A stretch of DNA of 11,071 nucleotides from a virus. Lineage: Duplodnaviria > Heunggongvirae > Uroviricota > Caudoviricetes. A program made the position numbers and the translations under genes. The first letter of the stretch is position 1. Every line of letters starts with the position of its first letter. Location of the stretch: IMG/VR virus record IMGVR_UViG_2778261676_000005; one strand, given 5' to 3'. The notes under the pieces were generated by a model. The model had not been told where the DNA came from. It saw only the letters and a program-made list of their open reading frames with translations, and made no database searches. This document shows positions 1 to 11,071 of this stretch, piece by piece.

Positions 1-1053
1 TTACGGGGTAATGCCAACCGCTGCCGCCACTTTGTCGCCACTTGGCAGCGTTGCCAGAGGATTGAAACGGAGCGCCGTTTCCAGATGATCCGGTGCCAGA
101 TGAGCGTAACGCATAGTCATTTTTATATCGTGATGTCCGAGGATTTTTTGCAAAGCAAGGATATTTCCACCCGACATCATGAAATGCGCCGCAAACGTAT
201 GGCGCAGAACGTGTGTCAGTTGACCGCGAGGGAGCACGATTGACGTTTTTTCCATCACGGATAAAAATTGAAAATAGCAGTCTGTGAAGAAATTGAACCC
301 ATCAAGCGCCATGATCTCTTCATAAAGCTCTTTACTGATAGGGATGCTTCTGTTTTTCTTCCCCTTCGTTCTTACAAAGGTAATTCGGTATTTAGTCACC
401 TGTGATCGGGTAAGGTTTATTGCTTCTCGCCAGCGTGCGCCTGTGCTTAAGCATATCTTGACTACCAGTGCCAGAATTGGGTCCTGACGTTTGCAATCAG
501 CCAGCAGTTCAACAATCTGCTCATGGGTAAGCCATGCCATCTCTTTTTCTGCGATGGTGAATTTTCGCATGTTCTCCAGTGGGTTTGGATACGACCATTC
601 GCCCAGGCGGGATAGTTCGCTAAAAACACTACTTAGATAGCTTTGCTCCAGGTTAATGGTGACCGGGCTTGCTCCTTTCTTCCATTTCTCGCTGAAGTAG
701 ATCTCACCTGTCAGGCGTTTATCTCGATAGTGGGCAAACATTTTAGAGGTGAGATCGGTTGCAAGGGGATTGCCCAGAGCGTCAACCATCAACAGCAATT
801 TATCATAGACATGCTGCCCAGCGGTTAGAGATTTACCATGTAGTTTGAACCATAGCTCAACCACGTCTTTCAGTGTTCGACGATCCACTGATTCTCCCAG
901 CCAGGGCTTTGCTTCGGTTTCTTCCATCGTATGGCGCTCAAAAGCCAGAGCTTCGCCTTTGGTGGCGAATTGTTTACGCACACGACGCCCACTACGTCCG
1001 GCGGGGTAACATTCGCAAAGCCATTTTCCTGTGGTGAGTTTTCGTACTGCCAT
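1..1053 (-). CDS. int: Tyrosine recombinase / phage integrase, P2-186 family
   Basis: The 376-aa ORF resembles P2 integrase along its length, including the C-terminal catalytic region (..HVLRHTFAAHFMMSGGNILALQKILGH..MTMRYAHL). Start placed at ATG 1053 (MAVRKLTTGKW) because GGAGGG lies 7 nt upstream; the ORF-track start at 1131 is probably an upstream extension. Stop is at 1-3. Confidence 0.9.
   Translation of the reverse strand: MAVRKLTTGKWLCECYPAGRSGRRVRKQFATKGEALAFERHTMEETEAKPWLGESVDRRTLKDVVELWFKLHGKSLTAGQHVYDKLLLMVDALGNPLATDLTSKMFAHYRDKRLTGEIYFSEKWKKGASPVTINLEQSYLSSVFSELSRLGEWSYPNPLENMRKFTIAEKEMAWLTHEQIVELLADCKRQDPILALVVKICLSTGARWREAINLTRSQVTKYRITFVRTKGKKNRSIPISKELYEEIMALDGFNFFTDCYFQFLSVMEKTSIVLPRGQLTHVLRHTFAAHFMMSGGNILALQKILGHHDIKMTMRYAHLAPDHLETALRFNPLATLPSGDKVAAAVGITP
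19..40. repeat. Left copy of 22-bp direct repeat cgctgccgccaYtttgtcgcca; candidate attL core
   Basis: Matches 8217-8238 at 21 of 22 positions (c versus t at position 12). It lies in the last codons of int; the other copy abuts the ogr stop, where P2-type attP is expected. Confidence 0.6.
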
Positions 1054-1239
1054 AAAAAATGCCCTCCAATAGAGAGCATTTTTACTGTATGTATAACCAG
1101 TGTCAATGTATGAAATCCTGCGACCATACATCTCACTGAAGCCATAATGAAGTTGGCTATTTTTTGCTATGTGAGTATGTGACTTTTGCGGTTAGCCTGC
1201 GGCTCATTGTTATATTAGGCGTAGATATAAAAGCAAAAT

Positions 1240-1431
1240 TTATCGCGAGTTTTTAGTACAGATTTTTTTTGATTTACTAATAGTTCCATCATTGCAAACG
1301 AACTTTCCATCGGAGGTACAGTGAGAGACACCTCCCTTTTTCCCAGAACAAGGGTAATTTTTAGCATAGGTAGTTAGTGGGTTTAATAACAAAGAGCATG
1401 ATAAAACCACAAAAAATACCTTACCAAGCAT
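1240..1431 (-). CDS. Small secreted cysteine- and lysine-rich protein (63 aa), function unknown
   Basis: Hydrophobic N-terminus with a likely signal-peptidase site after ..TYA; mature part ~40 aa with 4 Cys. Strong SD (GGGAGGAAA) directly after the cI stop, so probably co-translated with cI. Region is visibly AT-rich. Confidence 0.55.
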
Positions 1432-1446
1432 AGTTTCCTCCCGGTA

Positions 1447-2016
1447 TTACCTAACGTACTTAATTGTTAAACTTATAATTTTCCCAATTATTTCAACATC
1501 TTCTATCTTGCACTCGAAGGCTCTGTTTCCACCTTCAACGAAGATTCTTCCACCGGGTAAACGAGTAATGTCGCGGATTGTTATTTCGCCATCAATACTT
1601 ATTACCCATTTACCGTCACGTATATCATCAAATTCTTTATCACAAATAAATTCAGAATTGTTATCTGTGATGACAAAAGGTTTTTTAAACGTAGAGGGTA
1701 GAAATCCCTTATCAAAAATATAAAAACCGTCTTCACGCAAGGCACCATCAGATAATACATATTTAGCAACTTCCATAGTATTTGTATTACCTGAAGTTTG
1801 CTTTGAACCATGTCCGGTTGTGAGCCAATTAAGCGAGGTGCCCGTTTCAAGGGCGCACTGGATTACCCATTCTGCTGGGAATGAGTCACGCATGTAGCGT
1901 GTGGCGAGTGTACTTTTAGAGATTCCTAAATGATCGCACAACGCCTGTCGAGTTTTGAATCCATAAGCTTCTACCATGCGCTCTATAGCGCCTCGTCCGC
2001 CTTTCTCCAAATTCAT
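1447..2016 (-). CDS. cI: CI-type prophage repressor (phage 186 CI family: N-terminal HTH plus C-terminal domain)
   Basis: N-terminus AIERMVEAYGFKTRQALCDHLGISKSTLATRYMRDSFP is typical of the 186 CI HTH domain; ~190 aa as in 186 CI. Divergent from the early operon. ATG 2016 preferred (GGAG 5 nt upstream) over the GTG at 2022 used by the track. Confidence 0.8.
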   Translation of the reverse strand: MNLEKGGRGAIERMVEAYGFKTRQALCDHLGISKSTLATRYMRDSFPAEWVIQCALETGTSLNWLTTGHGSKQTSGNTNTMEVAKYVLSDGALREDGFYIFDKGFLPSTFKKPFVITDNNSEFICDKEFDDIRDGKWVISIDGEITIRDITRLPGGRIFVEGGNRAFECKIEDVEIIGKIISLTIKYVR

Positions 2017-2040
2017 GGTCACTCCAAGTGAACTTTTATC

Positions 2041-2069
2041 TTGACGATTTCACTGTGCGATCGTATGTT
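2041..2069 (+). promoter_or_regulatory. Candidate sigma70 early lytic promoter (pR-like): TTGACG-N17-TATGTT
   Basis: -35 TTGACG at 2041-2046, 17-nt spacer, -10 TATGTT at 2064-2069, pointing at apl/cII. Flanked by inverted hexamers GTGAAC (2030-2035) and GTTCAC (2086-2091) and by two GATC sites. Confidence 0.4.
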
Positions 2070-2141
2070 TATGGTGTTCACAAAATACAAACGATCCGTA
2101 TTCGTCCTGATTAATCATCATTAAACGAGGAATGTTGCATC

Positions 2142-2363
2142 ATGAGACCTAACATTTCAATCACTCTTACCACGCCTCATGTGACTATTGAACGCTATAG
2201 CGAGCTGACAGGGCTGTCCATCGATACCATCAATGACATGTTGGCTGACGGACGCCTTATCCGTCACCGTCTGCGCAAAGATAAAAAACGTGAAAAAGTG
2301 ATGATCAACATAGCAGCCATGACCGTTGATGCGCTTTCAGAATGCAATCTAAACCTTAATTAG
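2142..2363 (+). CDS. apl: Apl/Cox-like small DNA-binding protein (excision control / repressor of lysogenic promoter), assigned by position
   Basis: First gene of the rightward operon opposite cI, 73 aa, basic C-terminus, GAGGAA upstream. Assignment rests on position in the 186-type switch and size, not on recognised sequence motifs. Confidence 0.5.
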
Positions 2364-2395
2364 TTCGATTCTGAAATACATCAGAGGCATTGACC

Positions 2396-2905
2396 ATGTT
2401 TGATTACCAAGTTTCCAAACATCCACATTTTGATGAAGCCTGTCGTGCATTCGCATTGCGCCACAACCTAGTGCAACTGGCAGAACGTGCAGGCATGAAT
2501 GTGCAGATTCTGCGGAACAAGCTGAACCCAGCTCAACCTCATTTATTAACCGCACCAGAAATCTGGTTGCTTACCGATCTGACTGAAGATTCAACGCTGG
2601 TAGATGGCTTTCTGGCACAGATTCACTGCCTGCCATGTGTACCGATTAATGAGGTGGCAAAAGAGAAACTGCCGCATTACGTCATGAGTGCAACTGCAGA
2701 GATAGGGCGTGTCGCGGCAGGTGCGGTTTCTGGCGATGTAAAAACCAGTGCAGGCCGTCGTGATGCGATCAGCAGCATTAACTCTGTTACACGACTGATG
2801 GCGCTGGCTGCTGTTTCATTGCAGGCCCGTTTACAGGCTAATCCTGCGATGGCGAGTGCAGTTGATACCGTGACTGGCCTCGGTGCTTCATTCGGTTTGC
2901 TGTGA
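2396..2905 (+). CDS. cII: CII-like lysogeny establishment regulator (phage 186 CII family)
   Basis: Resembles 186 CII from the second Met ([20 protein letters not shown]..), and is 169 aa from that Met, the same length as 186 CII. AGAGG lies 8 nt upstream of ATG 2396. Confidence 0.8.
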
Positions 2906-2912
2906 GGTGCTT

Positions 2913-3113
2913 ATGCTGACGAAAGAACCATCATTTGCATCGCTGCTGGTAAAACAAAGTCCGGCAATGCACTACGGTCACGGCTGGATCATGGGTGAGG
3001 ATGGTAAACGCTGGCATCCGTGCCGTTCACAAGATGAATTGCTGGCAGAACTATCTACGAAAAAACGGGGGAACAAATGGCTATTGAAGGCGCTGCGGCG
3101 ACTGTTCCATTAA
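2913..3113 (+). CDS. Small early protein, unknown function (positional equivalent of 186 fil)
   Basis: ATG 2913 preceded by GTGAGGTG; 66 aa; follows cII in the same operon. No motif recognised. Confidence 0.45.
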   Translation: MLTKEPSFASLLVKQSPAMHYGHGWIMGEDGKRWHPCRSQDELLAELSTKKRGNKWLLKALRRLFH

Positions 3114-3418
3114 GACCCGGTGAACGCCTGAATGGACTTAATCATATTGCGGAGTTAAGGGCGAAAGTTTTTGGTTTGAATATTGAGTCAGAGCTTGAGC
3201 GGTTTATTAAAGATATGCGTGATCCTCGGGATATCAATAATGAACAAAATAAACGGGCACTGGCTGCCATATTCTTTATGGCAAAAATTCCAGCTGAACG
3301 TCATAGCATCAGCATTAATGAGCTGACCACTGACGAAAAGCGGGAGTTGATTAAAGCAATGAATCATTTTCGTGCAGTGGTGAGCTTATTTCCCAGACGG
3401 CTAACCATGCCGAATTAA
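3077..3418 (+). CDS. Early protein, unknown function (113 aa)
   Basis: ATG 3077 preceded by GGGGGAA; overlaps the upstream ORF by 37 nt in another frame. No motif recognised. Confidence 0.45.
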   Translation: MAIEGAAATVPLRPGERLNGLNHIAELRAKVFGLNIESELERFIKDMRDPRDINNEQNKRALAAIFFMAKIPAERHSISINELTTDEKRELIKAMNHFRAVVSLFPRRLTMPN

Positions 3419-3485
3419 CCAACTAATGAAATTAATGGCGTAAACCCGCCGGGCATCCCTTTATCTAAATTCAGGAGAATTGCTT

Positions 3486-3719
3486 ATGCGTAATATTGAA
3501 ACCCTCACGACCAAAACCGGACCGGATGATGCAGGTCTTAATCTTTTACTGACAGAAGCTCGTCTGGAAGAACGCCGGGCAAGGGCTGAAGCAATGGCTG
3601 CTCGCCTCGATAGCCTGGCGTGTCATATCACCTCCCGCCAGCTAAACCACGTCGAAGCGGCAGAACTGCTGCGTGTGACTGCTGAAGCAATCCAGAACGA
3701 AGCGCAGGAGATCCACTGA
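3486..3719 (+). CDS. Small early protein, unknown function (77 aa)
   Basis: ATG 3486 with AGGAG 8 nt upstream (the track start at 3480 is a TTG). Its stop overlaps the next start (TGATG). Confidence 0.5.
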   Translation: MRNIETLTTKTGPDDAGLNLLLTEARLEERRARAEAMAARLDSLACHITSRQLNHVEAAELLRVTAEAIQNEAQEIH

Positions 3720-3946
3720 TGGCTGATGCAATGGATCTCGTACAGCAGCGCGTTGAAGAAGAACGCCAACGCCATATCCGTGCTGCCCGTGCCAAAACGC
3801 CGGGCGTGTCCCGCGTGCTTTGCGTTGAGTGTGAAGCGCCAATTCCGCCAGCACGCCGCCGTGCCATTCCGGGTGTGCAGCTTTGCATTACCTGTCAGGA
3901 AATCGCAGAGCTGAAAGGCAAACATTACAACGGAGGTGCTGTATGA
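3719..3946 (+). CDS. TraR/DksA-family C4 zinc-finger protein (P2 orf82-like)
   Basis: CVECEAPIPPARRRAIPGVQLCITCQ is a CxxC...CxxC finger with the basic spacer typical of phage TraR-like proteins. Stop overlaps the dam start (ATGA). Confidence 0.75.
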   Translation: MADAMDLVQQRVEEERQRHIRAARAKTPGVSRVLCVECEAPIPPARRRAIPGVQLCITCQEIAELKGKHYNGGAV

Positions 3947-4800
3947 GCACCATCCTGAAATGGGCAGGAAATAAAACCGCCATAATGTCCGAACTGAAAA
4001 AGCATCTTCCTGCTGGCCCGCGACTGGTTGAACCTTTCGCGGGTTCCTGTGCAGTGATGATGGAGACGGATTATCCCAGCTATCTTGTTGCGGATATTAA
4101 TCCTGATTTAATCAACCTCTATAAAAAGGTTGCTGCTGATTGTGAGGCGTTTATATCTCGTGCCAGAGCTTTATTTGAGGAAGCAAACAGGGAGGTGGCT
4201 TATTACAACATAAGGCAGGAGTTTAATTACTCCACTGAAATTACTGATTTCATGAAAGCGGTATATTTCCTGTATCTCAATCGTCACGGTTACCGTGGTT
4301 TATGTCGCTATAACAAGAGCGGGAATTTCAACATTCCCTACGGTAATTATAAAAATCCGTATTTCCCTGAAAAAGAAATTCGCGCATTTGCAGAAAAAGC
4401 CCAGCGAGCAACGTTTATCTGCGCCAGCTTTGATGAAACGCTGGCGATGTTGAAGGCGGGGGATGTGGTGTATTGCGATCCGCCGTATGACGGTACGTTT
4501 TCCGGCTATCACACTGATGGTTTCACTGAAGATGACCAGTATCACCTGGCATCCGTTCTTGAACATCGGTCATCAGAAGGACATCCGGTCATTGTTTCTA
4601 ACAGTGACACATCCCTGATCCGTTCGTTGTATCGCAATTTCACCCACCACTACATCAAAGCAAAACGCAGCATCGGTGTGGCAGCTGGCGAGGGTAAATC
4701 AGCAACAGAAATCATTGCTGTTTCCGGGCCGCGCTGCTGGGTGGGATTTGATTATTCGCGTGGCGTGGACAGTTCTGCCGTGTACGGAGTACGTGCATGA
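3943..4800 (+). CDS. dam: DNA adenine methyltransferase, Dam-like (N6-adenine class)
   Basis: N-terminus [11 protein letters not shown] and motif FAGSCAV, plus the catalytic DPPY motif ([11 protein letters not shown]). ATG 3943 follows GGAGG; the longer track ORF from 3883 is an upstream extension. Confidence 0.85.
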
Positions 4801-6359
4801 GTCATGCCGATATGAACAACTGCTGCGGCTTTAACGAGTCTGCCGCAGCATTCTCATGGAACAGCCCGAAAAAGGCCATTAACCCTTATCTGGACCCGGC
4901 GGAAGTTGCGCCGGTTTCTGCGCTTTCAAACCTGATCACTCTGTACGCTGCCGATAACGAGCAGGAACAACTGCGCCGCGAGGCACTGAGTGATCAGGTC
5001 TGGGAGCGTTATTTCTTTAATGAATCCCGTGATCCTGTCCAGCGCGAAATGGAGCAGGATAAGCTAATTAGCCGGGCAAAGCTGGCGCATGAGCAGCAGC
5101 GTTTTAATCCGGACATGGTCATTCTGGCGGATGTCAACGCCCAGCCTTCCCATATCAGCAAGCCGCTGATGCAACGTATTGAATACTTCAGCAGCCTGGG
5201 CAGGCCAAAGGCTTATTCCCGCTATTTACGTGAGACGATTAAGCCATGTCTGGAACGACTGGAGCATGTACGCGACAGTCAGCTATCTGCATCTTTTCGC
5301 TTTATGGCAAGCCATGAAGGGCTGGACGGCCTGCTGATCTTGCCTGAAATGAGTCAGGATCAGGTGAAACGCCTGTCCACCCTGGTAGCTGCGCATATGA
5401 GTATGTGCCTTGATGCAGCTTGTGGTGATTTGTATGCCACCGATGACGTTAAGCCAGAAGAAATCCGCAAGACATGGGAAAGGGTGGCAGCAGAAACCCT
5501 GCGACTGGATGTCATCCCACCTGCGTTTGAGCAACTCCGCCGGAAAAGAAACCGCCGTAAACCCGTGCCCTATGAACTCATTCCGGGTTCGCTGGCGCGT
5601 ATGTTGTGCGCCGACTGGTGGTATCGGAAATTATGGAAGATGCGTTGCGAATGGCGGGAAGAGCAGTTGCGCGCTGTCTGCCTGGTCAGCAAAAAAGCAT
5701 CTCCCTATGTCAGCTATGAAGCTGTGATGCATAAACGTGAGCAGCGCCGTAAGTCGCTGGAGTTTTTTCGTTCTCATGAACTGGTGAACGAAGATGGCGA
5801 CACGCTGGATATGGAAGACGTGGTAAACGCCAGCAGCAGCAACCCTGCGCATCGCCGCAATGAGATGATGGCCTGTGTTAAAGGTCTGGAGCTTATCGCG
5901 GAAATGCGCGGTGACTGCGCCGTTTTCTACACCATCACCTGTCCGTCACGTTTCCATTCCACGCTAAATAACGGCAGGCCCAACCCGACTTGGACAAATG
6001 CGACGGTAAGACAAAGCAGTGATTATCTGGTCGGCATGTTTGCTGCATTTCGTAAGGCGATGTACAAAGCCGGATTGCGCTGGTATGGCGTGCGGGTGGC
6101 TGAGCCGCATCATGACGGTACAGTTCACTGGCACCTGTTGTGTTTTATGCGCAAAAAAGATCGCCGCGCCATTACTGCTTTGTTGCGTAAGTTTGCCATT
6201 CGTGAAGACCGTGAGGAGCTGGGTAATAACACAGGACCACGCTTTAAGTCTGAGCTGATACCGGGGAAGTGCAGGCCGTGGAGCTTGTGGTGCGTGGACG
6301 TCACAAAGAAGTGGATTCCGGCGAGTGGAAGACGGGCGAAAGCAACACCACCAAAGTGA
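4797..6359 (+). pseudogene. A: Replication initiation protein gpA (rolling-circle HUH endonuclease), 3'-truncated
   Basis: Resembles P2 gpA through the HUH motif ([16 protein letters not shown]). The ORF then ends after a short tail that is the out-of-frame reading of the tail-tube-like fragment. At 520 aa it is short of the ~760 aa I recall for P2 gpA. Confidence 0.7.
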
Positions 6360-6490
6360 CCAGTACCAACAGCTACGCGAAGCTGACCATCAATGGTGAG
6401 GTGCTCTATGAACTGGACCTTATCAACATGGTGGAAATTGTGGACGGTGTGGACCTGATGGAAGCGCACCGCAACGCCCTCGGCCTCTGA
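6263..6490 (+). pseudogene. C-terminal fragment of a tail tube (gpFII-like) gene lacking its 5' part
   Basis: Frame-2 translation ..[69 protein letters not shown] resembles tail-tube C-termini and sits directly upstream of E, where FII lies in P2. No plausible start or N-terminal region. Confidence 0.45.
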
Positions 6491-6544
6491 TGTATCTGAA
6501 CGGCGCGGGATACCGCGCCAGAACCCAATTTACAGGACAACAAA

Positions 6545-6847
6545 ATGAGCGATAAGCAGACTGAAAAGACCATTCAACTGGATACCCCCATCATGCGCGG
6601 TAAAACAGAAATTACCGAAATTGTGTTGCGTAAACCGCAGTCTGGTGCGCTGCGCGGCACACGCCTGCAGGCCATTATGGATATGGATGTGAACGCGATG
6701 ATGACCGTGATCCCCCGCATCTCCAGTCCGGCACTGACTGCACAGGAAATCGCAGAGATGGACCCGGCAGATCTCACCGCTATGTCGGTTGAGGTTGTCA
6801 CTTTTTTGTTGAAGAAGTCGGTGCTTGCCGGTTTACCGACAGCCTGA
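6545..6847 (+). CDS. E: Tail assembly chaperone gpE
   Basis: 100-aa protein with gpE-like sequence (TIQLDTPIMRGKTEITEIVLRKPQSGALRG); slippery heptamer TTTTTTG near the 3' end; immediately upstream of the tape-measure start. Confidence 0.75.
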   Translation: MSDKQTEKTIQLDTPIMRGKTEITEIVLRKPQSGALRGTRLQAIMDMDVNAMMTVIPRISSPALTAQEIAEMDPADLTAMSVEVVTFLLKKSVLAGLPTA

Positions 6848-6981
6848 CGGTTGACGATCTGGTGGCAGATATCGCCACCATTTTTCACTGGCCGCCATCC
6901 GTTACTGACGTTATGCCGCTGACCGAAGTGCTGGAATGGCGGTATAAAGCGATTCAGAGATGCGGGGCCAACGATGAGTGA
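6545..6981 (+). CDS. gpE+E' frameshift fusion (programmed -1 frameshift, P2 E/E' and lambda G/GT type)
   Basis: From T TTT TTG at 6802-6808 the -1 frame is open to TGA at 6979-6981, reading ..GACRFTDSLTVDDLVADIATIFHWPPSVTDVMPLTEVLEWRYKAIQRCGANDE. It ends overlapping the T start at 6974, as in P2. Confidence 0.6.
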
Positions 6982-7549
6982 TAACAACCTGCGCCTGCAG
7001 GTCATTCTTAATGCGGTTGACAAACTCACCCGCCCATTCCGTGCTGCACAGGCCAGTTCGAAAGAGCTGGCTGGCGCAATCAGAAACTCCCGTGACGCAT
7101 TAAAGCAACTCAATCAGGCGGGTAACAGCCTGGAAAAATTTCGCAAGCTGCAGGCTGATAACAAGAAGTTAGGCGACAGGCTGAACTATGCCAGACAGAA
7201 GGCTAATTTGCTTAGCTCTGAGCTGGAGGCGATGGAGCAACCATCACAAAGGCATTTTGTGGCTTTAGGTCGGCAAACGCTGGCAGTCCAACGCCTGGAA
7301 GAACAACAAAAATATTTGCAGAAGCAAACGGCGCTTGTGCGTGCTGAACTGTACCGGGCGGGAATTTCTGCGAAAGATGATGCGGGAGCAACTGCCCGTT
7401 TAGCCCGTGAAACATCACGTTATAACCAGGAACTTTCGAAACAGGAGGCGCGGCTGAAGCGACTGGGGGAAGCTCAGCGCAGGATGAATGCAGCGCGTGC
7501 CAGTTACCCGCGAACCCGCGAAGAAAGAAAGCACTACGGTGAAGCGTAA
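6974..7549 (+). pseudogene. T: Tail tape measure protein gpT, N-terminal fragment (~170 aa of an expected ~800)
   Basis: N-terminus MSDNNLRLQVILNAVDKLTRPF with coiled-coil sequence is typical of P2-family tape measure proteins. The ORF ends after 191 aa and overlaps the gpD-fragment frame. Confidence 0.7.
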
Positions 7550-7907
7550 GCGCAGGACTAAGAAGCAGAAGAAAGAGCCGGAAGCGAAGCAGGGCGATTA
7601 CCTGGTGGGGACGGATGAAAACGTGCTGGTACTTAATCGCACTTATGCCAACCGGAGCAACGCCGAACGAGCGGCAAAAATGCAGTGGGAACGCCTGCAA
7701 CGCGGCGTTGCGTCATTCTCGCTACAACTGGCGGAAGGGCGGGCAGATCTCTACACGGAAATGCCAGTGAAAGTCAGTGGCTTTAAACAGCCGATAGATG
7801 ATGCGGAATGGACCATTACGACTCTGACACATACTGTCAGCCCGGATAACGGTTTTACAACCAGTATTGAACTCGAAGTGAAGATTGATGATTTCGAAAT
7901 GGAATGA
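7488..7907 (+). pseudogene. D: Tail protein gpD, C-terminal fragment
   Basis: ..YANRSNAERAAKMQWERLQRGVASFSLQLAEGRADLYTEMPVKVSGFKQPIDDAEWTITTLTHTVSPDNGFTTSIELEVK matches the C-terminal ~120 aa of P2 gpD. No N-terminal two thirds and no gpU gene. Sits directly upstream of ogr as in P2. Confidence 0.8.
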
Positions 7908-7997
7908 TTCTTCGCAATGGAGAACTTTTAAGTTTGCAAAATGGAATAATAAGGTATCATTATTGTGAATTTAGCAAAAATGGGGAGAACTCGAAAA

Positions 7998-8216
7998 ATG
8001 ATGATTTGCCCACTGTGTGGAAGTGCCGCCCATACTCGCAGCAGTTTTCAGGTATCTTCATTGACCAAAGAGCGTTACAACCAGTGCCAGAACATTAACT
8101 GCAGCCATACTTTTGTTACCCATGAAACTTTTGTTCGTTCGATTGCAACGCCAAAAGAGTCAAATCCGGTTCAGCCGCATCCAATGAAATCAGGACAGGT
8201 GGCGCTCTCTCTTTGA
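7998..8216 (+). CDS. ogr: Late gene transcription activator Ogr (zinc finger)
   Basis: MMICPLCGSAAHTRSS...ERYNQCQNINCSHTF...PHPMKSGQ resembles P2 Ogr (Cys4 finger); 72 aa from ATG 7998, as in P2. GGGGAGAA upstream. Confidence 0.9.
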   Translation: MMICPLCGSAAHTRSSFQVSSLTKERYNQCQNINCSHTFVTHETFVRSIATPKESNPVQPHPMKSGQVALSL

Positions 8217-8238
8217 CGCTGCCGCCATTTTGTCGCCA
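8217..8238. repeat. Right copy of the 22-bp direct repeat; candidate attR core
   Basis: cgctgccgccattttgtcgcca starts on the nucleotide after the ogr stop and matches 19-40 with one mismatch. Confidence 0.6.
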
Positions 8239-8296
8239 TCGTTAAAAAGCAGTGCTTCTAACATCATGATTTTAAAAGGCATAAATTTCAGACAAC

Positions 8297-8339
8297 AAAA
8301 AACCCATCAACCTTGAACCGAAATGGCGGGGTTGATGGG
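8297..8339 (-). terminator. Candidate intrinsic terminator for ybjL (read on the minus strand)
   Basis: Perfect 10-bp arms CCCATCAACC (8303-8312) and GGTTGATGGG (8330-8339), with an inner CCG/CGG pair, followed on the minus strand by a U-run (plus-strand A-run 8297-8302). About 110 nt downstream of the ybjL stop, and the loop is large, so confidence is modest. Confidence 0.35.
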
Positions 8340-8451: not shown

Positions 8452-10137
8452 TTATCCTAATCCTGGCCATACCATGACGATGATTGTCCCTGCCAGCGTC
8501 AGCAGGACGTTGGCGATTGCATAGGTGCCCGCATAGCCCAGCGCCGGGATGTTACTGCGAGCTGTATCACTGATGATCTCCATTGCCGGCGCGCAGGTAC
8601 GTGCGCCCATCATTGCGCCGAACAACAGCGCGCGGTTCATTCGCAATACATAAGCACCGAACAAGAAACAGATAACCACGGGCACCAGACTGACAATCAA
8701 TCCGGCAATCAACATCTGACCGCCAATCGCGCCCAGGCCGTTATTAATACCGCTACCGGCGCTCAGACCAACGCCTGCCATAAACACCATCAAGCCGAAC
8801 TCTTTCACCATGCTTAATGCACCCTGCGGAATGTAACCGAAGGTCGGGTGGTTAGCACGCATAAAGCCCAGCATAATTCCGGCGAATAACAACCCGGCAG
8901 CGTTCCCCATGCCGAAACTGAATGTGCTGAACTGGAAGGTGATCATCCCGATCATCAGCCCAATAACAAAGAAGGCGCAGAATGCCAGCAGGTCAGTGAC
9001 CTGGCTGTGAATCGAGATAAAGCCGATGCGATCGGCGATGGTTTTTACGCGGCGGGCATCGCCGCTGACTTGTAAAACGTCACCTTTGTTAAGCACGACG
9101 TTGTCATCTATCGGCATCTCAATCTGGCTACGAATGACGCGGTTAAGGAAGCAACCGTGATCGGTCAACTTCAGTTGTGCGAGACGTTTACCTACAGCGT
9201 TATGGTTTTTAACGACCACTTCTTCAGTGACGATACGCATGTCGAGAAGGTCACGATCGAAAACTTCTTTACCGTTACGGAAGCTGGGATCGAGTCGGGC
9301 ATGGGCGTCGGGATAGCCTACCAACGCTATTTCATCGCCCATTTGTAGCACGGCATCACCGTCTGGATTTGCCAGAATCCCGTTACGTCGAATACGTTCA
9401 ATGTAGCAGCCGGTTTGTCGATAAATACCCAGTTCACGCAGATTTTTGCCGTCGGTCCAGGCCACCAGTTCCGGGCCGACGCGATAGGCGCGGATCACCG
9501 GTAAATAAACCTTACGGTTGGCATCAGTGTCCAGGCCACGTTCGCGGGCGATTTGCTGGGCGCTGGTCTGTAAGTCCTGATGCTGCAATTTCGGCAAGTA
9601 ACGCGCACCAACAATCAAACTCACCAGACCGATTAAATAGGTTAAGGCATACCCGAGGCTCAGATTATCCAGTGCCAGTGAGAGCTGCCTGCTTTCCATG
9701 CCGGAATGACGCAGTGTATCGCCAGCACCGACCAGAACCGGTGTCGACGTCATAGAGCCTGCTAACATACCGGCCGTCAGGCCAATATCCCAGCCAAACA
9801 GCTTACCTAACCCTAAGGCGATCACCAGCGCACTGCCAACCATCACCAGTGCTAACATTAGGTAATTTTTCCCATCGCGAAAAAAAATGGAAAAAAAGTT
9901 CGGTCCGGCTTCGACCCCGACGCAGAAAATAAACAGCATAAAGCCAAGATTAAGCGCATCGGTGTTAATGCTGAAATGTTGTTGGCCTAATAACAGCGAT
10001 ACGACTAAAACGCCAATGGAATTACCCAGTTGGATCGAACCAAGTCGTAACTTTCCGAGACATAGCCCAAGCGCGAGGACCACAAATAATAACAGAATGT
10101 AATTCCCATTTAACAATTCGGCGACGTTTATATTCAC
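8452..10137 (-). CDS. ybjL: Putative transport protein YbjL (AAE family)
   Basis: 561-aa polytopic membrane protein; N-terminus [33 protein letters not shown] and length match E. coli YbjL as I recall it. Confidence 0.9.
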
Positions 10138-10406
10138 GGAGGCTAACTTCTTGTTTACTAGTAAGCTGTTGAAAGAAATGGTAATTTACGATAATGTTTT
10201 TTACCAGAATTCAGGGCGCAGATTCATTCAGCGCACCTAAACGATAGTAAAGTAACAATATATTTTACTAGTGTAATCACATTAGGTATCAACGGCTATA
10301 TGAATTGCGTTGGCCTATATTAGCATGGAATGCGAAGCGGCTTTATCTTACTGAACGCCACACTGGCGAAAAATGTGTTCGATAGACGCAGTGTCAGGAG
10401 GAACGA

Positions 10407-10784
10407 GTGAAACATAAACAACGTTGGGCGGGGGCAATCTGCTGTTTTGTCCTCTTCATTGTGGTGTGCCTTTTTCTGGCGACGCACATGAAAGGCGCTT
10501 TTCGGGCTGCCGGGCATCCTGAAATCGGCTTGCTATTTTTCATTCTTCCTGGAGCAGTCGCCAGCTTCTTTTCACAGCGTAGAGAAGTCCTGAAACCTCT
10601 GTTTGGCGCAATGCTGGCGGCACCCTGTTCGATGCTCATTATGCGGCTGTTTTTTTCACCGACGCGCTCATTCTGGCAAGAGCTGGCATGGTTACTAAGC
10701 GCGGTGTTCTGGTGTGCGCTGGGGGCACTGTGTTTCTTATTTATCAGTAGTTTGTTTAAACCACAGCACAGAAAAAATCAGTAA
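10407..10784 (+). CDS. ybjM: Inner membrane protein YbjM
   Basis: 125-aa hydrophobic protein divergent from ybjL and convergent with grxA, as in the E. coli K-12 ybjL-ybjM-grxA locus. Confidence 0.8.
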   Translation: MKHKQRWAGAICCFVLFIVVCLFLATHMKGAFRAAGHPEIGLLFFILPGAVASFFSQRREVLKPLFGAMLAAPCSMLIMRLFFSPTRSFWQELAWLLSAVFWCALGALCFLFISSLFKPQHRKNQ

Positions 10785-10804
10785 AGCCCTCAACGCGAGG
10801 GCTT
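10771..10804. terminator. Hairpin between convergent ybjM and grxA; likely grxA intrinsic terminator
   Basis: 8-bp stem AAGCCCTC / GAGGGCTT with loop aacgc at 10784-10804, 10 nt after the grxA stop. A T-rich run follows on the minus strand; no T-run on the plus strand. Confidence 0.5.
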
Positions 10805-10813
10805 GTCAGACGA

Positions 10814-11071
10814 TCAGGCGTCCAGATTTTCTTTCACCCATGCAGCAAAATCGGTATAGCCGCCGATATGTTGCTGATCGACAAAAATCTGCGGCACGGT
10901 TTCTACGGGTTTACCTGCCTTTTGTTGTAGATCTTCTTTAGTGATCCCTTCCGCACGAATATCTACATACTGATACTGAAAATCATCGCGTTCATTGCTC
11001 AATTTCTCAGCCAGATCTTTTGCACGCACACAGTAAGGGCAACCCGAACGACCAAAAATAACGGTTTGCAT
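10814..11071 (-). CDS. grxA: Glutaredoxin 1
   Basis: 85 aa with CPYC active site (MQTVIFGRSGCPYCVRAKDLAEKL...); matches E. coli GrxA as I recall it. Start codon is at the window edge (11069-11071). Confidence 0.9.
   Translation of the reverse strand: MQTVIFGRSGCPYCVRAKDLAEKLSNERDDFQYQYVDIRAEGITKEDLQQKAGKPVETVPQIFVDQQHIGGYTDFAAWVKENLDA

Follow-up and report, generated by a model that had tools for sequence, protein, structure and literature searches.

The 11,071-nucleotide stretch analysed here (hereafter, the window) is, in all probability, a segment of the Escherichia coli chromosome that carries a defective (cryptic) 186/Fels-2-like prophage of the P2 family (Peduoviridae) with two internal deletions. 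The remnant of 8.4 kb is located between rcdA and ybjL and has lost ~24 kb in total across the two deletions. The object is of an already known kind, a decayed prophage of the P2/186 type, and this one is one more example of ordinary prophage decay. The features of the window are as follows.

1-1053, minus strand: integrase, full length, 350 aa (PF00589; positions 5205-6257 of locus L008; same length in the intact PA45B prophage)
1447-2016, minus strand: CI-type immunity repressor, full length, 189 aa (PF07022, PF16452; same length in APEC O78)
2142-4800, plus strand: early lytic operon, intact (gene calls and Pfam; lengths match intact relatives), with apl/cox-like gene 2142-2363, cII 2396-2905, fil 2913-3113, DUF5347 3077-3418, DUF2732 3486-3719, TraR/DksA 3719-3946 and Dam methylase 3943-4800
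4797-6260, plus strand: A', codons 1-488 of gene A, which encodes the replication endonuclease (match to PF05840 positions 1-299 of 321)
6256-6260: junction 1, microhomology (T)GATA common to A and FII; 20,383 bp missing compared with PA45B (10662-31044 of the PA45B locus, L009)
6257-6490, plus strand: 'FII, tail-tube fragment, residues 95-171 of 171, without native start codon or promoter
6261-6359, plus strand: end of the A' ORF, 32 codons and a stop, FII read out of frame
6545-6981, plus strand: E (6545-6847) and E' (6862-6981), both full length, encoding tail assembly chaperones (PF10109, PF06528)
6974-7549, plus strand: T', tape-measure gene (1,025 codons) up to codon 178, followed by 13 out-of-frame D codons
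7505-7506: junction 2, TA overlap of T and D; 3,723 bp missing (32292-36014 of the PA45B locus)
7505-7907, plus strand: 'D, fragment of the tail/late-control gene D, residues 234-366 of 366
7998-8216, plus strand: ogr/B-type late-gene activator, full length, 72 aa (PF04606)
8290-8307: attR core AGACAACAAAAAACCCAT, an imperfect direct repeat of AGATAACAAAAAACCCAT adjoining rcdA
8452-11071: host genes ybjL (8452-10137, minus), ybjM (10407-10784, plus) and grxA (10814-11071, minus)

The arrangement is that of a cryptic prophage: an att core repeat flanks the int to ogr block, and essential modules are missing. The same site is occupied by an intact relative in strain PA45B. Phage similarity stops at 8307; at the other end, the stop codon of the integrase gene is the first position of the window, and the attL core lies ~75-90 nt beyond the window edge. 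All 11 phage genes that are not interrupted by a junction are full length, and the phage gene content consists entirely of 186-like early genes and tail fragments. The modules required of an intact (inducible, particle-forming) Peduoviridae prophage, from cos, portal, terminase, scaffold and capsid to the lysis cassette, baseplate, fibres, sheath and tube, map to positions 10662-31044 and 32292-36014 of the PA45B locus and are missing from the window. Judging from gene content, the element does not qualify as a P4-like satellite or a phage-inducible island either, there being no cos, functional replicase or sid/psu.

In a megablast search against phage records, full-length replication genes (2,415 nt, 804 aa) match the segment 4797-6259/6260 at 96-97%, after which the similarity breaks off; none of the phage records spans the whole query. 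The ORF that contains A' (4797-6359, 520 aa) has the usual start of A, which overlaps the stop codon of dam. The natural length of A homologues is ~795-806 aa (the 90%-identity cluster includes 1,816 members, mostly of that size), and the proteins of the individual systems range from 804 aa in RE-2010 and PA45B to 761 aa in P2 and 694 aa in 186. By length and domain content, the 520-aa product falls short of a functional initiator, with the match to the GPA family of Pfam ending at position 299 of 321 and the Rep match stopping before the tyrosine region. The HUH motif is retained (HWH at residues 444-446, window positions 6126-6134), and the similarity to A ends at residue 488, in line with the first-pass annotation, which described gpA-like sequence that runs through HUH and then changes character. 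A' matches P2 A up to residue 442 and 186 A up to residue 432. The catalytic motif YIAKY of the intact relatives is located at residues 498-502, and its tyrosines Y498 and Y502 align with Y450/Y454 of P2 A and Y442/Y446 of 186 A; the break after residue 488 is 10 codons short of this motif. The 32-codon tail of the A' ORF contains no YxxxY, and the two catalytic tyrosines, which the same annotation proposed to look for downstream of HUH, are absent. Residues 450 and 454 of P2 A are reportedly the active-site tyrosines (Odegrip & Haggard-Ljungquist 2001).

The ori nick site of P2 and 186 sits inside the 3' third of A. It is annotated at 29892 in the P2 record (A codon 620) and at 28576 in the 186 record (codon 611), and in the intact relatives both nick positions map to codon ~675, within the deleted block, where the sequence around the P2 nick matches a conserved segment. 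No ori-like or cos-like sequence remains in the window, so that the fragment has no cognate ori. To judge from the sequence, the A'-'FII product is a pseudogene that encompasses the N-terminal region and the HUH metal-binding motif, lacks the catalytic tyrosines and ends with 32 nonsense codons.

Junction 1 is clean. Breakpoints were placed by comparison with four phage records and with the intact PA45B prophage. The similarity to A stops at 6259/6260 and that to FII begins at 6256/6257, an overlap of 4-5 bp with no filler, and the matches on both sides have E-values of 0 and are not due to chance. These alignments place the junction at 6257-6260, within the interval 6230-6275 that had been predicted for it, and the (T)GATA overlap supplies the microhomology that had been suggested as a check. 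The parental microhomology is likely to have been 5 bp, TGATA, to judge from the intact FII alleles noted below. Between 6256/6257 and 7506, the alignment (97-98%) runs from the 3' part of the tail-tube gene through E and E' into the 5' end of the tape-measure gene. A search with the frame 6269-6490 against the Pfam family Phage_tube (PF04985) covers positions 95-165 of 165 with an E-value of 4e-26, and 'FII is 98.7% identical to residues 95-171 of intact FII; the tube domain is incomplete, the N-terminal half of FII being deleted together with the pF promoter region. A and FII are read in different frames (4797, 0 mod 3, for A; 6269, 2 mod 3, for FII), so the last 32 codons of the ORF are out-of-frame FII, which bears out the earlier interpretation of the ORF tail. 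A scan of viral contigs for the FII right end in other remnants found only intact FII alleles, which read GATGATACC.

The block that corresponds to deletion 1 in intact relatives contains the rest of A with ori, dinI/tum, cos (a cos-like GGCGTGGCGGGGATACGAG is present at 12406-12424 of the PA45B locus), the cargo (defence) hotspot, and the portal, terminase, capsid, lysis, baseplate, fibre and sheath genes. This agrees with the proposal that the rest of A, cos, the capsid, lysis and tail genes and the accessory region have been deleted, and the prophage of PA45B, which occupies the same site and is 20,383 bp longer at junction 1, represents the longer version that was to be sought in related strains. 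The more general statement that the structural and lysis genes had been removed is correct for the head, the lysis and most of the tail genes but does not extend to E, E' and 178 codons of T, which survive. Deletion 1 would have joined A codon 488 to FII codon 95 at the TGATA microhomology of 4-5 bp, presumably through RecA-independent illegitimate recombination (strand slippage or microhomology-mediated end joining).

Judging from what has been retained, the element would be unable to replicate or form particles on its own, or to lyse the cell. The absence of ori would render rolling-circle initiation impossible even with A supplied in trans, and the absence of cos would preclude packaging by a helper. 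Both att cores have been preserved, and the genes int, CI, apl, cII, fil, dam and ogr are all of full length; the element probably still confers immunity to homoimmune phages and may still be excised, as a dead-end circle.

The T'-'D deletion is separate from the A-FII deletion and was absent from the first-pass annotation. T' is genuine up to 7506, and the right end of the junction is the recurrent site GCATA-CCCGCGAACC (here and below, a hyphen within a sequence marks the end point); in this event, T codon 178 would have been joined out of frame to D codon 234. The 1,025-aa protein P0008, a member of the gpA cluster, was considered as a possible A-T fusion and is instead a tape-measure protein.

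Contigs from NCBI GCA_002518955.1 and from Logan, 2-3 in all, encode the fusion protein, and the GCA_002518955.1 contig agrees with the window at every position; the source is a draft assembly, and the Logan copy may derive from the same reads, which limits its independence. Junction 1 occurs in none of 5,426 complete E. coli genomes and 185,579 species representatives and thus is rare; junction 2 occurs in none of the complete E. coli genomes. Literature searches identified no account of the remnant or of a deletion hotspot. It is conceivable, if very improbable, that the assembly created the junction (a chimeric short-read contig) and that the strain in fact carries an intact prophage, as the draft source and the absence from complete E. 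coli genomes might suggest. However, the contig is 188 kb long and has normal host sequence to either side of the remnant, Logan as a second assembly source contains the same protein, both junctions are clean microhomology joints without any duplicated sequence, unlike repeat-collapse errors, and analogous deletions at the same locus are present in complete genomes. Even less credible is the possibility that the 520-aa protein is a natural short replication initiator with a chance likeness to the tail tube downstream, a reading under which the first-pass annotation would have been wrong. Although the ORF is open and begins over the dam stop codon as A normally does, this reading is rejected on the length of the homologues (~800 aa, typically 795-806), the truncated GPA match, the missing YIAKY, and the 98.7% identity of the downstream frame to FII residues 95-171. 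A domesticated module under selection, comprising CI immunity, Dam, Ogr and perhaps an A' that is HUH-only and dominant-negative, is an unlikely but less remote alternative to neutral debris. It is compatible with the full length of all 11 non-junction phage genes and with the maintenance of the same int-to-dam arm and ogr in many independent remnants. Such retention fits equally well with a recent deletion, considering that the right arm shows 0 differences in 800 positions from strain 730V1; furthermore, prophage ends outlast any internal deletion by geometry, and A', 'FII, T' and 'D are out-of-frame junk. Prophage decay by two internal deletions remains the preferred reading.

At least ten other strains, E. 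coli B/BL21 among them, carry independent and different deletions at the rcdA-ybjL site, so that the prophage at this site decays repeatedly. The left ends of these deletions all differ, and the right ends repeat to the nucleotide at ATA-CCSGSS sites. In 7 of the 14 catalogued junctions, the right end is at one of three ATA-CC(C/G)G(C/G)(C/G) sites, namely D36013 (four times, with different left partners), D35659 (twice) and FII31044 (once, in this window); the sites read ATA-CCCGCG and ATA-CCCGCC in D and ATA-CCGGGG in FII. Plain random microhomology leaves the recurrence of related right-end sites in other strains unaccounted for. Deletion 1 might therefore belong to a sequence-directed class, with its right end set at this motif by a nuclease, a recombinase or replication pausing, a tentative interpretation that we consider possible but not the favoured one. 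Besides the repeated use of the sites with varying left partners, it draws on the occurrence of the motif on the plus strand of the 34-kb prophage at three positions only, exactly the three used sites, on the probability of ~9e-7 of finding at least 4 of 14 junctions at one TA site, and on the context similarity of the three sites, which is equalled in 62 of 300,000 random triples. Right-arm haplotypes do not group by junction type, and shared right-arm ancestry as the source of the recurrent D end is not supported, the right arm here being the same as that of 730V1, in which D is intact. Against a directed process, the motif was defined after the sites had been seen, the FII site represents a single event, the motif is unused in the seven other junctions, and no candidate enzyme was found. 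The sites contain no unusual single-stranded DNA structure (fold z-scores of -0.5 to +1.2 for hairpins or palindromes), no CRISPR PAM at a constant distance (a GAG PAM suitable for type I-E self-targeting is located 32 nt upstream of one site and missing at the other two), and no mobile element or intron inserted at the D site (16 pattern matches are unrelated chance hits). Inspection reveals no convincing likeness to the att core, the P2 ori nick, cos or an invertase crossover. A Chi-like GCTGGTTG is located 4 nt to the left of the D site, on the deleted side, and its polarity would appear to be wrong for RecBCD protection. Taken together, the fixed right-hand and variable left-hand ends in 186-like prophages could perhaps reflect a directional, sequence-recognising inactivation, of which A'-'FII would be one product.

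Taken alone, the finding is of little weight, and its use is to flag a pseudogenised replication gene: a single deletion removes the catalytic tyrosines, ori, cos and all head and lysis genes and leaves the immunity and regulatory genes. The prophage is presumably dead, and counts of inducible prophages or of P2 defence hotspot carriers should not include it. The rcdA-ybjL site, with an intact prophage in some strains and at least eleven differing remnants elsewhere, offers a natural series for the study of prophage decay. Should a large survey uphold the exact reuse of a few right-hand ends, it would suggest that prophages are inactivated by a non-random mechanism; if real, such a directed process (nuclease, recombinase or replication-linked template switch) would repeatedly 'ground' 186-like prophages in E. 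coli.

The closest known systems are the intact 186/Fels-2-like prophages and phages, namely Salmonella phage RE-2010, Escherichia phage Cartapus, Klebsiella phage KP12 and the prophage of E. coli PA45B, to which all retained segments are 96-98% identical at the nucleotide level, with the same gene order; the PA45B prophage also shares the rcdA-ybjL integration site and the att core. These relatives measure 33-35 kb; their A is complete (804 aa), and cos and the genes for head, lysis and tail are present, whereas the remnant is 8.4 kb with two deletions. P2 gpA and 186 A are HUH-superfamily rolling-circle initiators with two active-site tyrosines that act in cis on an ori inside their own gene. 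A' belongs to the same Pfam family, PF05840, and has the conserved EPHHDGTxHWH motif but lacks YxxxY (P2 Y450/Y454) and everything downstream, including the ori nick.

The defective P2-like prophage of E. coli B/BL21 and E. coli C uses the same rcdA-ybjL attachment site and has the same 'D-ogr-attR right arm, with D cut at the junction-2 nucleotide, GCATA-CCCGCGAACC. The left partner there is the invertase gene, not T, and the E. coli B remnant retains baseplate and fibre genes and lacks the int-to-A arm found in the window. The K-12 cryptic prophage PR-X (ogrK-yegZ) is likewise a P2-family remnant with a C-terminal D fragment and an ogr-type activator, but it occupies a different locus and derives from P2 proper (97% identity). 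PR-X was rejected as a user of the ATA-CCSGSS sites: its 219-nt D fragment abuts sequence resembling the P2 att core, a junction more suggestive of aberrant recombination by Int than of joining at a microhomology.

All 11,071 bp of the window occur without a difference in contig NONG01000007.1 of a draft E. coli assembly (NCBI GCA_002518955.1; locus L008 5205-16275), from the stop codon of a phage int gene at one end to the start of grxA at the other. The window carries a defective P2-family prophage of 8.4 kb, bounded by an imperfect 18-bp direct repeat:

1-8307, phage DNA, 96-98% identity to 186/Fels-2-like Peduoviridae
just beyond the window, repeat copy adjoining rcdA, AGATAACAAAAAACCCAT
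8290-8307, repeat copy at the ybjL side, AGACAACAAAAAACCCAT
8452-11071, host genes ybjL, ybjM and grxA

The element is ordinary, another instance of a well-known kind, and by every test applied it is neither an intact prophage nor a satellite. Relatives of the phage part within this identity range include Salmonella phage RE-2010, Escherichia phage Cartapus and Klebsiella phage KP12, among others. Apart from the genes at the junctions, the phage genes are full-length, namely int, a small YdcA-like ORF, CI, apl, cII, fil, DUF5347, DUF2732, TraR, dam, the tail assembly chaperone genes E and E', and ogr. The YdcA-family ORF (63 aa; 1240-1431, minus strand) lies between int and CI, a position that in relatives contains larger cargo genes (DUF4041 in PA45B, a P-loop NTPase in PSJ-29) and resembles a second slot for variable cargo.

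The ORF at 4797-6359 encodes 520 aa. By nucleotide similarity, full-length replication genes A (2,415 nt) match the window from 4797 to 6259/6260, ending there in 58 of 58 phage records. The match to the tail-tube gene FII begins at 6256/6257 and extends to 7506, taking in E, E' and the 5' portion of T, the tape-measure gene. A three-way alignment reveals a clean junction with no filler (the A side reads ...GAGCTGATA/AACCCG and the FII side ...GTGA(C/T)GATA/CCGGGG, with the slash at the breakpoint), the overlap being 4 bp (GATA), or 5 bp (TGATA) where FII has the common GAT-GAT allele. The frame ending at 6490 corresponds to residues 95-171 of the 171 residues of FII, with 98.7% identity, and matches positions 95-165 of 165 in Pfam PF04985 (E 4e-26). 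Since the frame of A differs from that of FII, the final 32 codons of the 520-aa ORF are out-of-frame FII. The first-pass annotation had read the ORF tail in this way and had correctly placed the junction within 6230-6275; the microhomology that it proposed to look for is present, and alignment to P2 and 186 places both breakpoints on each genome (A at nt ~29357 and FII at nt ~19140 in P2; ~28037 and ~15662, respectively, in 186).

Homologues of A are ~800 aa long (804 in both RE-2010 and PA45B), and the 90%-identity cluster of 1,816 members consists mostly of proteins of 795-806 aa. The truncated protein, A', retains the HUH motif (residues 444-446), through which the gpA-like sequence had been said to run before changing character, and breaks after residue 488. 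The catalytic tyrosine motif to be sought after HUH is missing: in intact relatives SYIAKYISKNIDG, with tyrosines 498 and 502, lies 10 residues past the break, and it is absent from the window protein. These tyrosines align to residues 450 and 454 of P2 A and 442 and 446 of 186 A; Y450 and Y454 of P2 A are the published active-site residues. The origin nick is annotated within the 3' third of A (codon 620 in the P2 record, codon 611 in the 186 record), and in intact relatives the nick sequence of P2 aligns with a conserved segment at codon ~675, well within the deleted block; nothing similar is left in the window. Of the four features that define a functional gpA, A' lacks three, and the FII fragment fails the tube-protein test. 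A naturally ~520-aa A is ruled out by the ~800-aa homologues, the loss of the tyrosine motif and the FII homology of the frame ending at 6490.

The survey of related strains suggested in the first-pass annotation yields a longer version of the prophage: E. coli PA45B contains an apparently complete 34-kb prophage of the same type at exactly the same site (rcdA to ybjL; locus L009). Compared with PA45B, 20,383 bp (L009 10662-31044) are gone at the first junction:

the remainder of A, one small ORF and dinI
cos-like sequence, GGCGTGGCGGGGATACGAG
three cargo genes
portal, terminase, scaffold, capsid, head completion, holin, endolysin and spanins
tail completion, baseplate, fibres, invertase, sheath and FII codons 1-94

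The deleted-gene list proposed earlier holds for the rest of A, cos, capsid, lysis and most tail genes, but some tail-gene fragments survive. The first 13 nt of GGCGTGGCGGGGATACGAG (L009 12406-12424) are the same as the 186 cohesive end, and no cos-like sequence is found in the window. This sequence is located between dinI and the cargo genes, with the similarity of relatives stopping ~5 nt beyond, so that the variable cargo of this lineage lies between cos and the portal gene. A defence hotspot has been reported between gpA and portal in P2-like phages (bioRxiv 10.64898/2026.02.27.708500); the position of the PA45B-type cargo matches it, and the cargo of relatives there encodes an AIPR protein or TIR-domain proteins.

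The fusion noted in the first-pass annotation is confirmed, and its reading as a deletion is supported; a second deletion adds to the single one described there. Similarity to T stops at 7506 and similarity to the tail/late-control gene D starts at 7505, the two overlapping by 2 bp (TA); compared with PA45B, 3,723 bp are gone, namely the greater part of T, the whole of U and 233 D codons, and T codon 178 is fused out of frame to D codon 234 (T' 6974-7506; 'D 7505-7907). In form, both junctions are what RecA-independent illegitimate recombination between short homologies would be expected to leave.

Judging by gene content, rolling-circle replication would be unable to start, given the loss of both the catalytic tyrosines and ori, and A supplied in trans would not be expected to rescue it. 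Packaging, even with a helper, is predicted to be impossible because cos is missing; the element is also predicted to be unable to lyse the host. Since CI, int and apl are intact, as are both att cores, the element is probably still able to confer immunity against homoimmune phages and may yet excise. In the 186 record, tum is located at the dinI/tum position, and by this analogy the loss of the dinI/tum region suggests that the element is no longer SOS-inducible.

Each junction is absent from 5,426 complete E. coli genomes, the first one also from 185,579 species-representative genomes, and the A'-'FII fusion ORF is on record in only 2-3 contigs. Between rcdA and ybjL, at least ten further strains (E. 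coli B/BL21 and C among them) have remnants of this prophage type whose deletions differ and arose independently:

APEC O78, portal to T
L9, A' (1,212 nt) to D
730V1, A' to J and H to T, plus IS insertions
TUM12357, A' (~1,187 nt) to D
2017-03-3CC, portal to D
2017.11.01CC, terminase to D
S43, terminase to E'
PSJ-29, terminase to D
KL53, scaffold to D
E. coli B/BL21 and C, invertase to D
IMG/VR contig (L017), portal to D

Four truncation points of A occur at this locus (1,187, 1,212, 1,463 and 2,108 nt). The 'D-ogr-attR arm of the window (7507-8307) shows 0 differences in 800 nt from that of 730V1, yet D is intact in 730V1 and its deletions are different; hence the two closely related prophages decayed separately, which implies that both decays are very recent.

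Among 14 junctions at the locus, all 14 left ends differ, whereas right ends repeat to the nucleotide (L009 coordinates):

36013, GCATA/CCCGCGAACC, the T'-'D junction here, E. coli B, 2017-03-3CC and L017, four different left partners
35659, GAATA/CCCGCCGTG, L9 and 2017.11.01CC
31044, TGATA/CCGGGGAAG, FII, the A'-'FII junction here

Recurrent ends were noted at 7505-7520 of the window and at L010 ~6004, L011 ~9007, L017 ~9822, L005 7760 and L055 12478. The motif ATACC[CG]G[CG][CG] has three occurrences on the plus strand of the 34-kb prophage, exactly at 36013, 35659 and 31044. The probability of four of 14 ends at one site is ~9e-7 for random ends on the 1,044 available TA dinucleotides; of 300,000 random triples, 62 are as similar in sequence as these three sites, a generous figure in view of the post hoc definition of the motif. 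Neither unusual single-strand structure, nor an inserted element, nor a consistent CRISPR PAM was found at these sites, which on inspection do not convincingly resemble att, ori, cos or invertase sites. The motif-associated recurrent right end is the one feature of possible specialist interest; the pattern is not yet to be believed, pending a large phylogeny-aware survey.

The 8-mer AACCCGCG directly follows the A breakpoint (L009 10663-10670; window 6126-6260), and is also found 10 nt past the L017 portal breakpoint (L009 15487-15494) and within the tandem repeat CCCGCGAA-CCCGCGAA immediately to the right of the D hotspot (L009 36021-36028); it may add GC-rich pairing to junction choice. Unlike the recurrent ends, PR-X of E. 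coli K-12 (ogrK-yegZ; L014 6603-6850) has a D fragment joined to a match to the P2 att core, AAAAAATAAGCCCGTGTA, which suggests aberrant Int-mediated recombination as another route to a 'D-ogr remnant.
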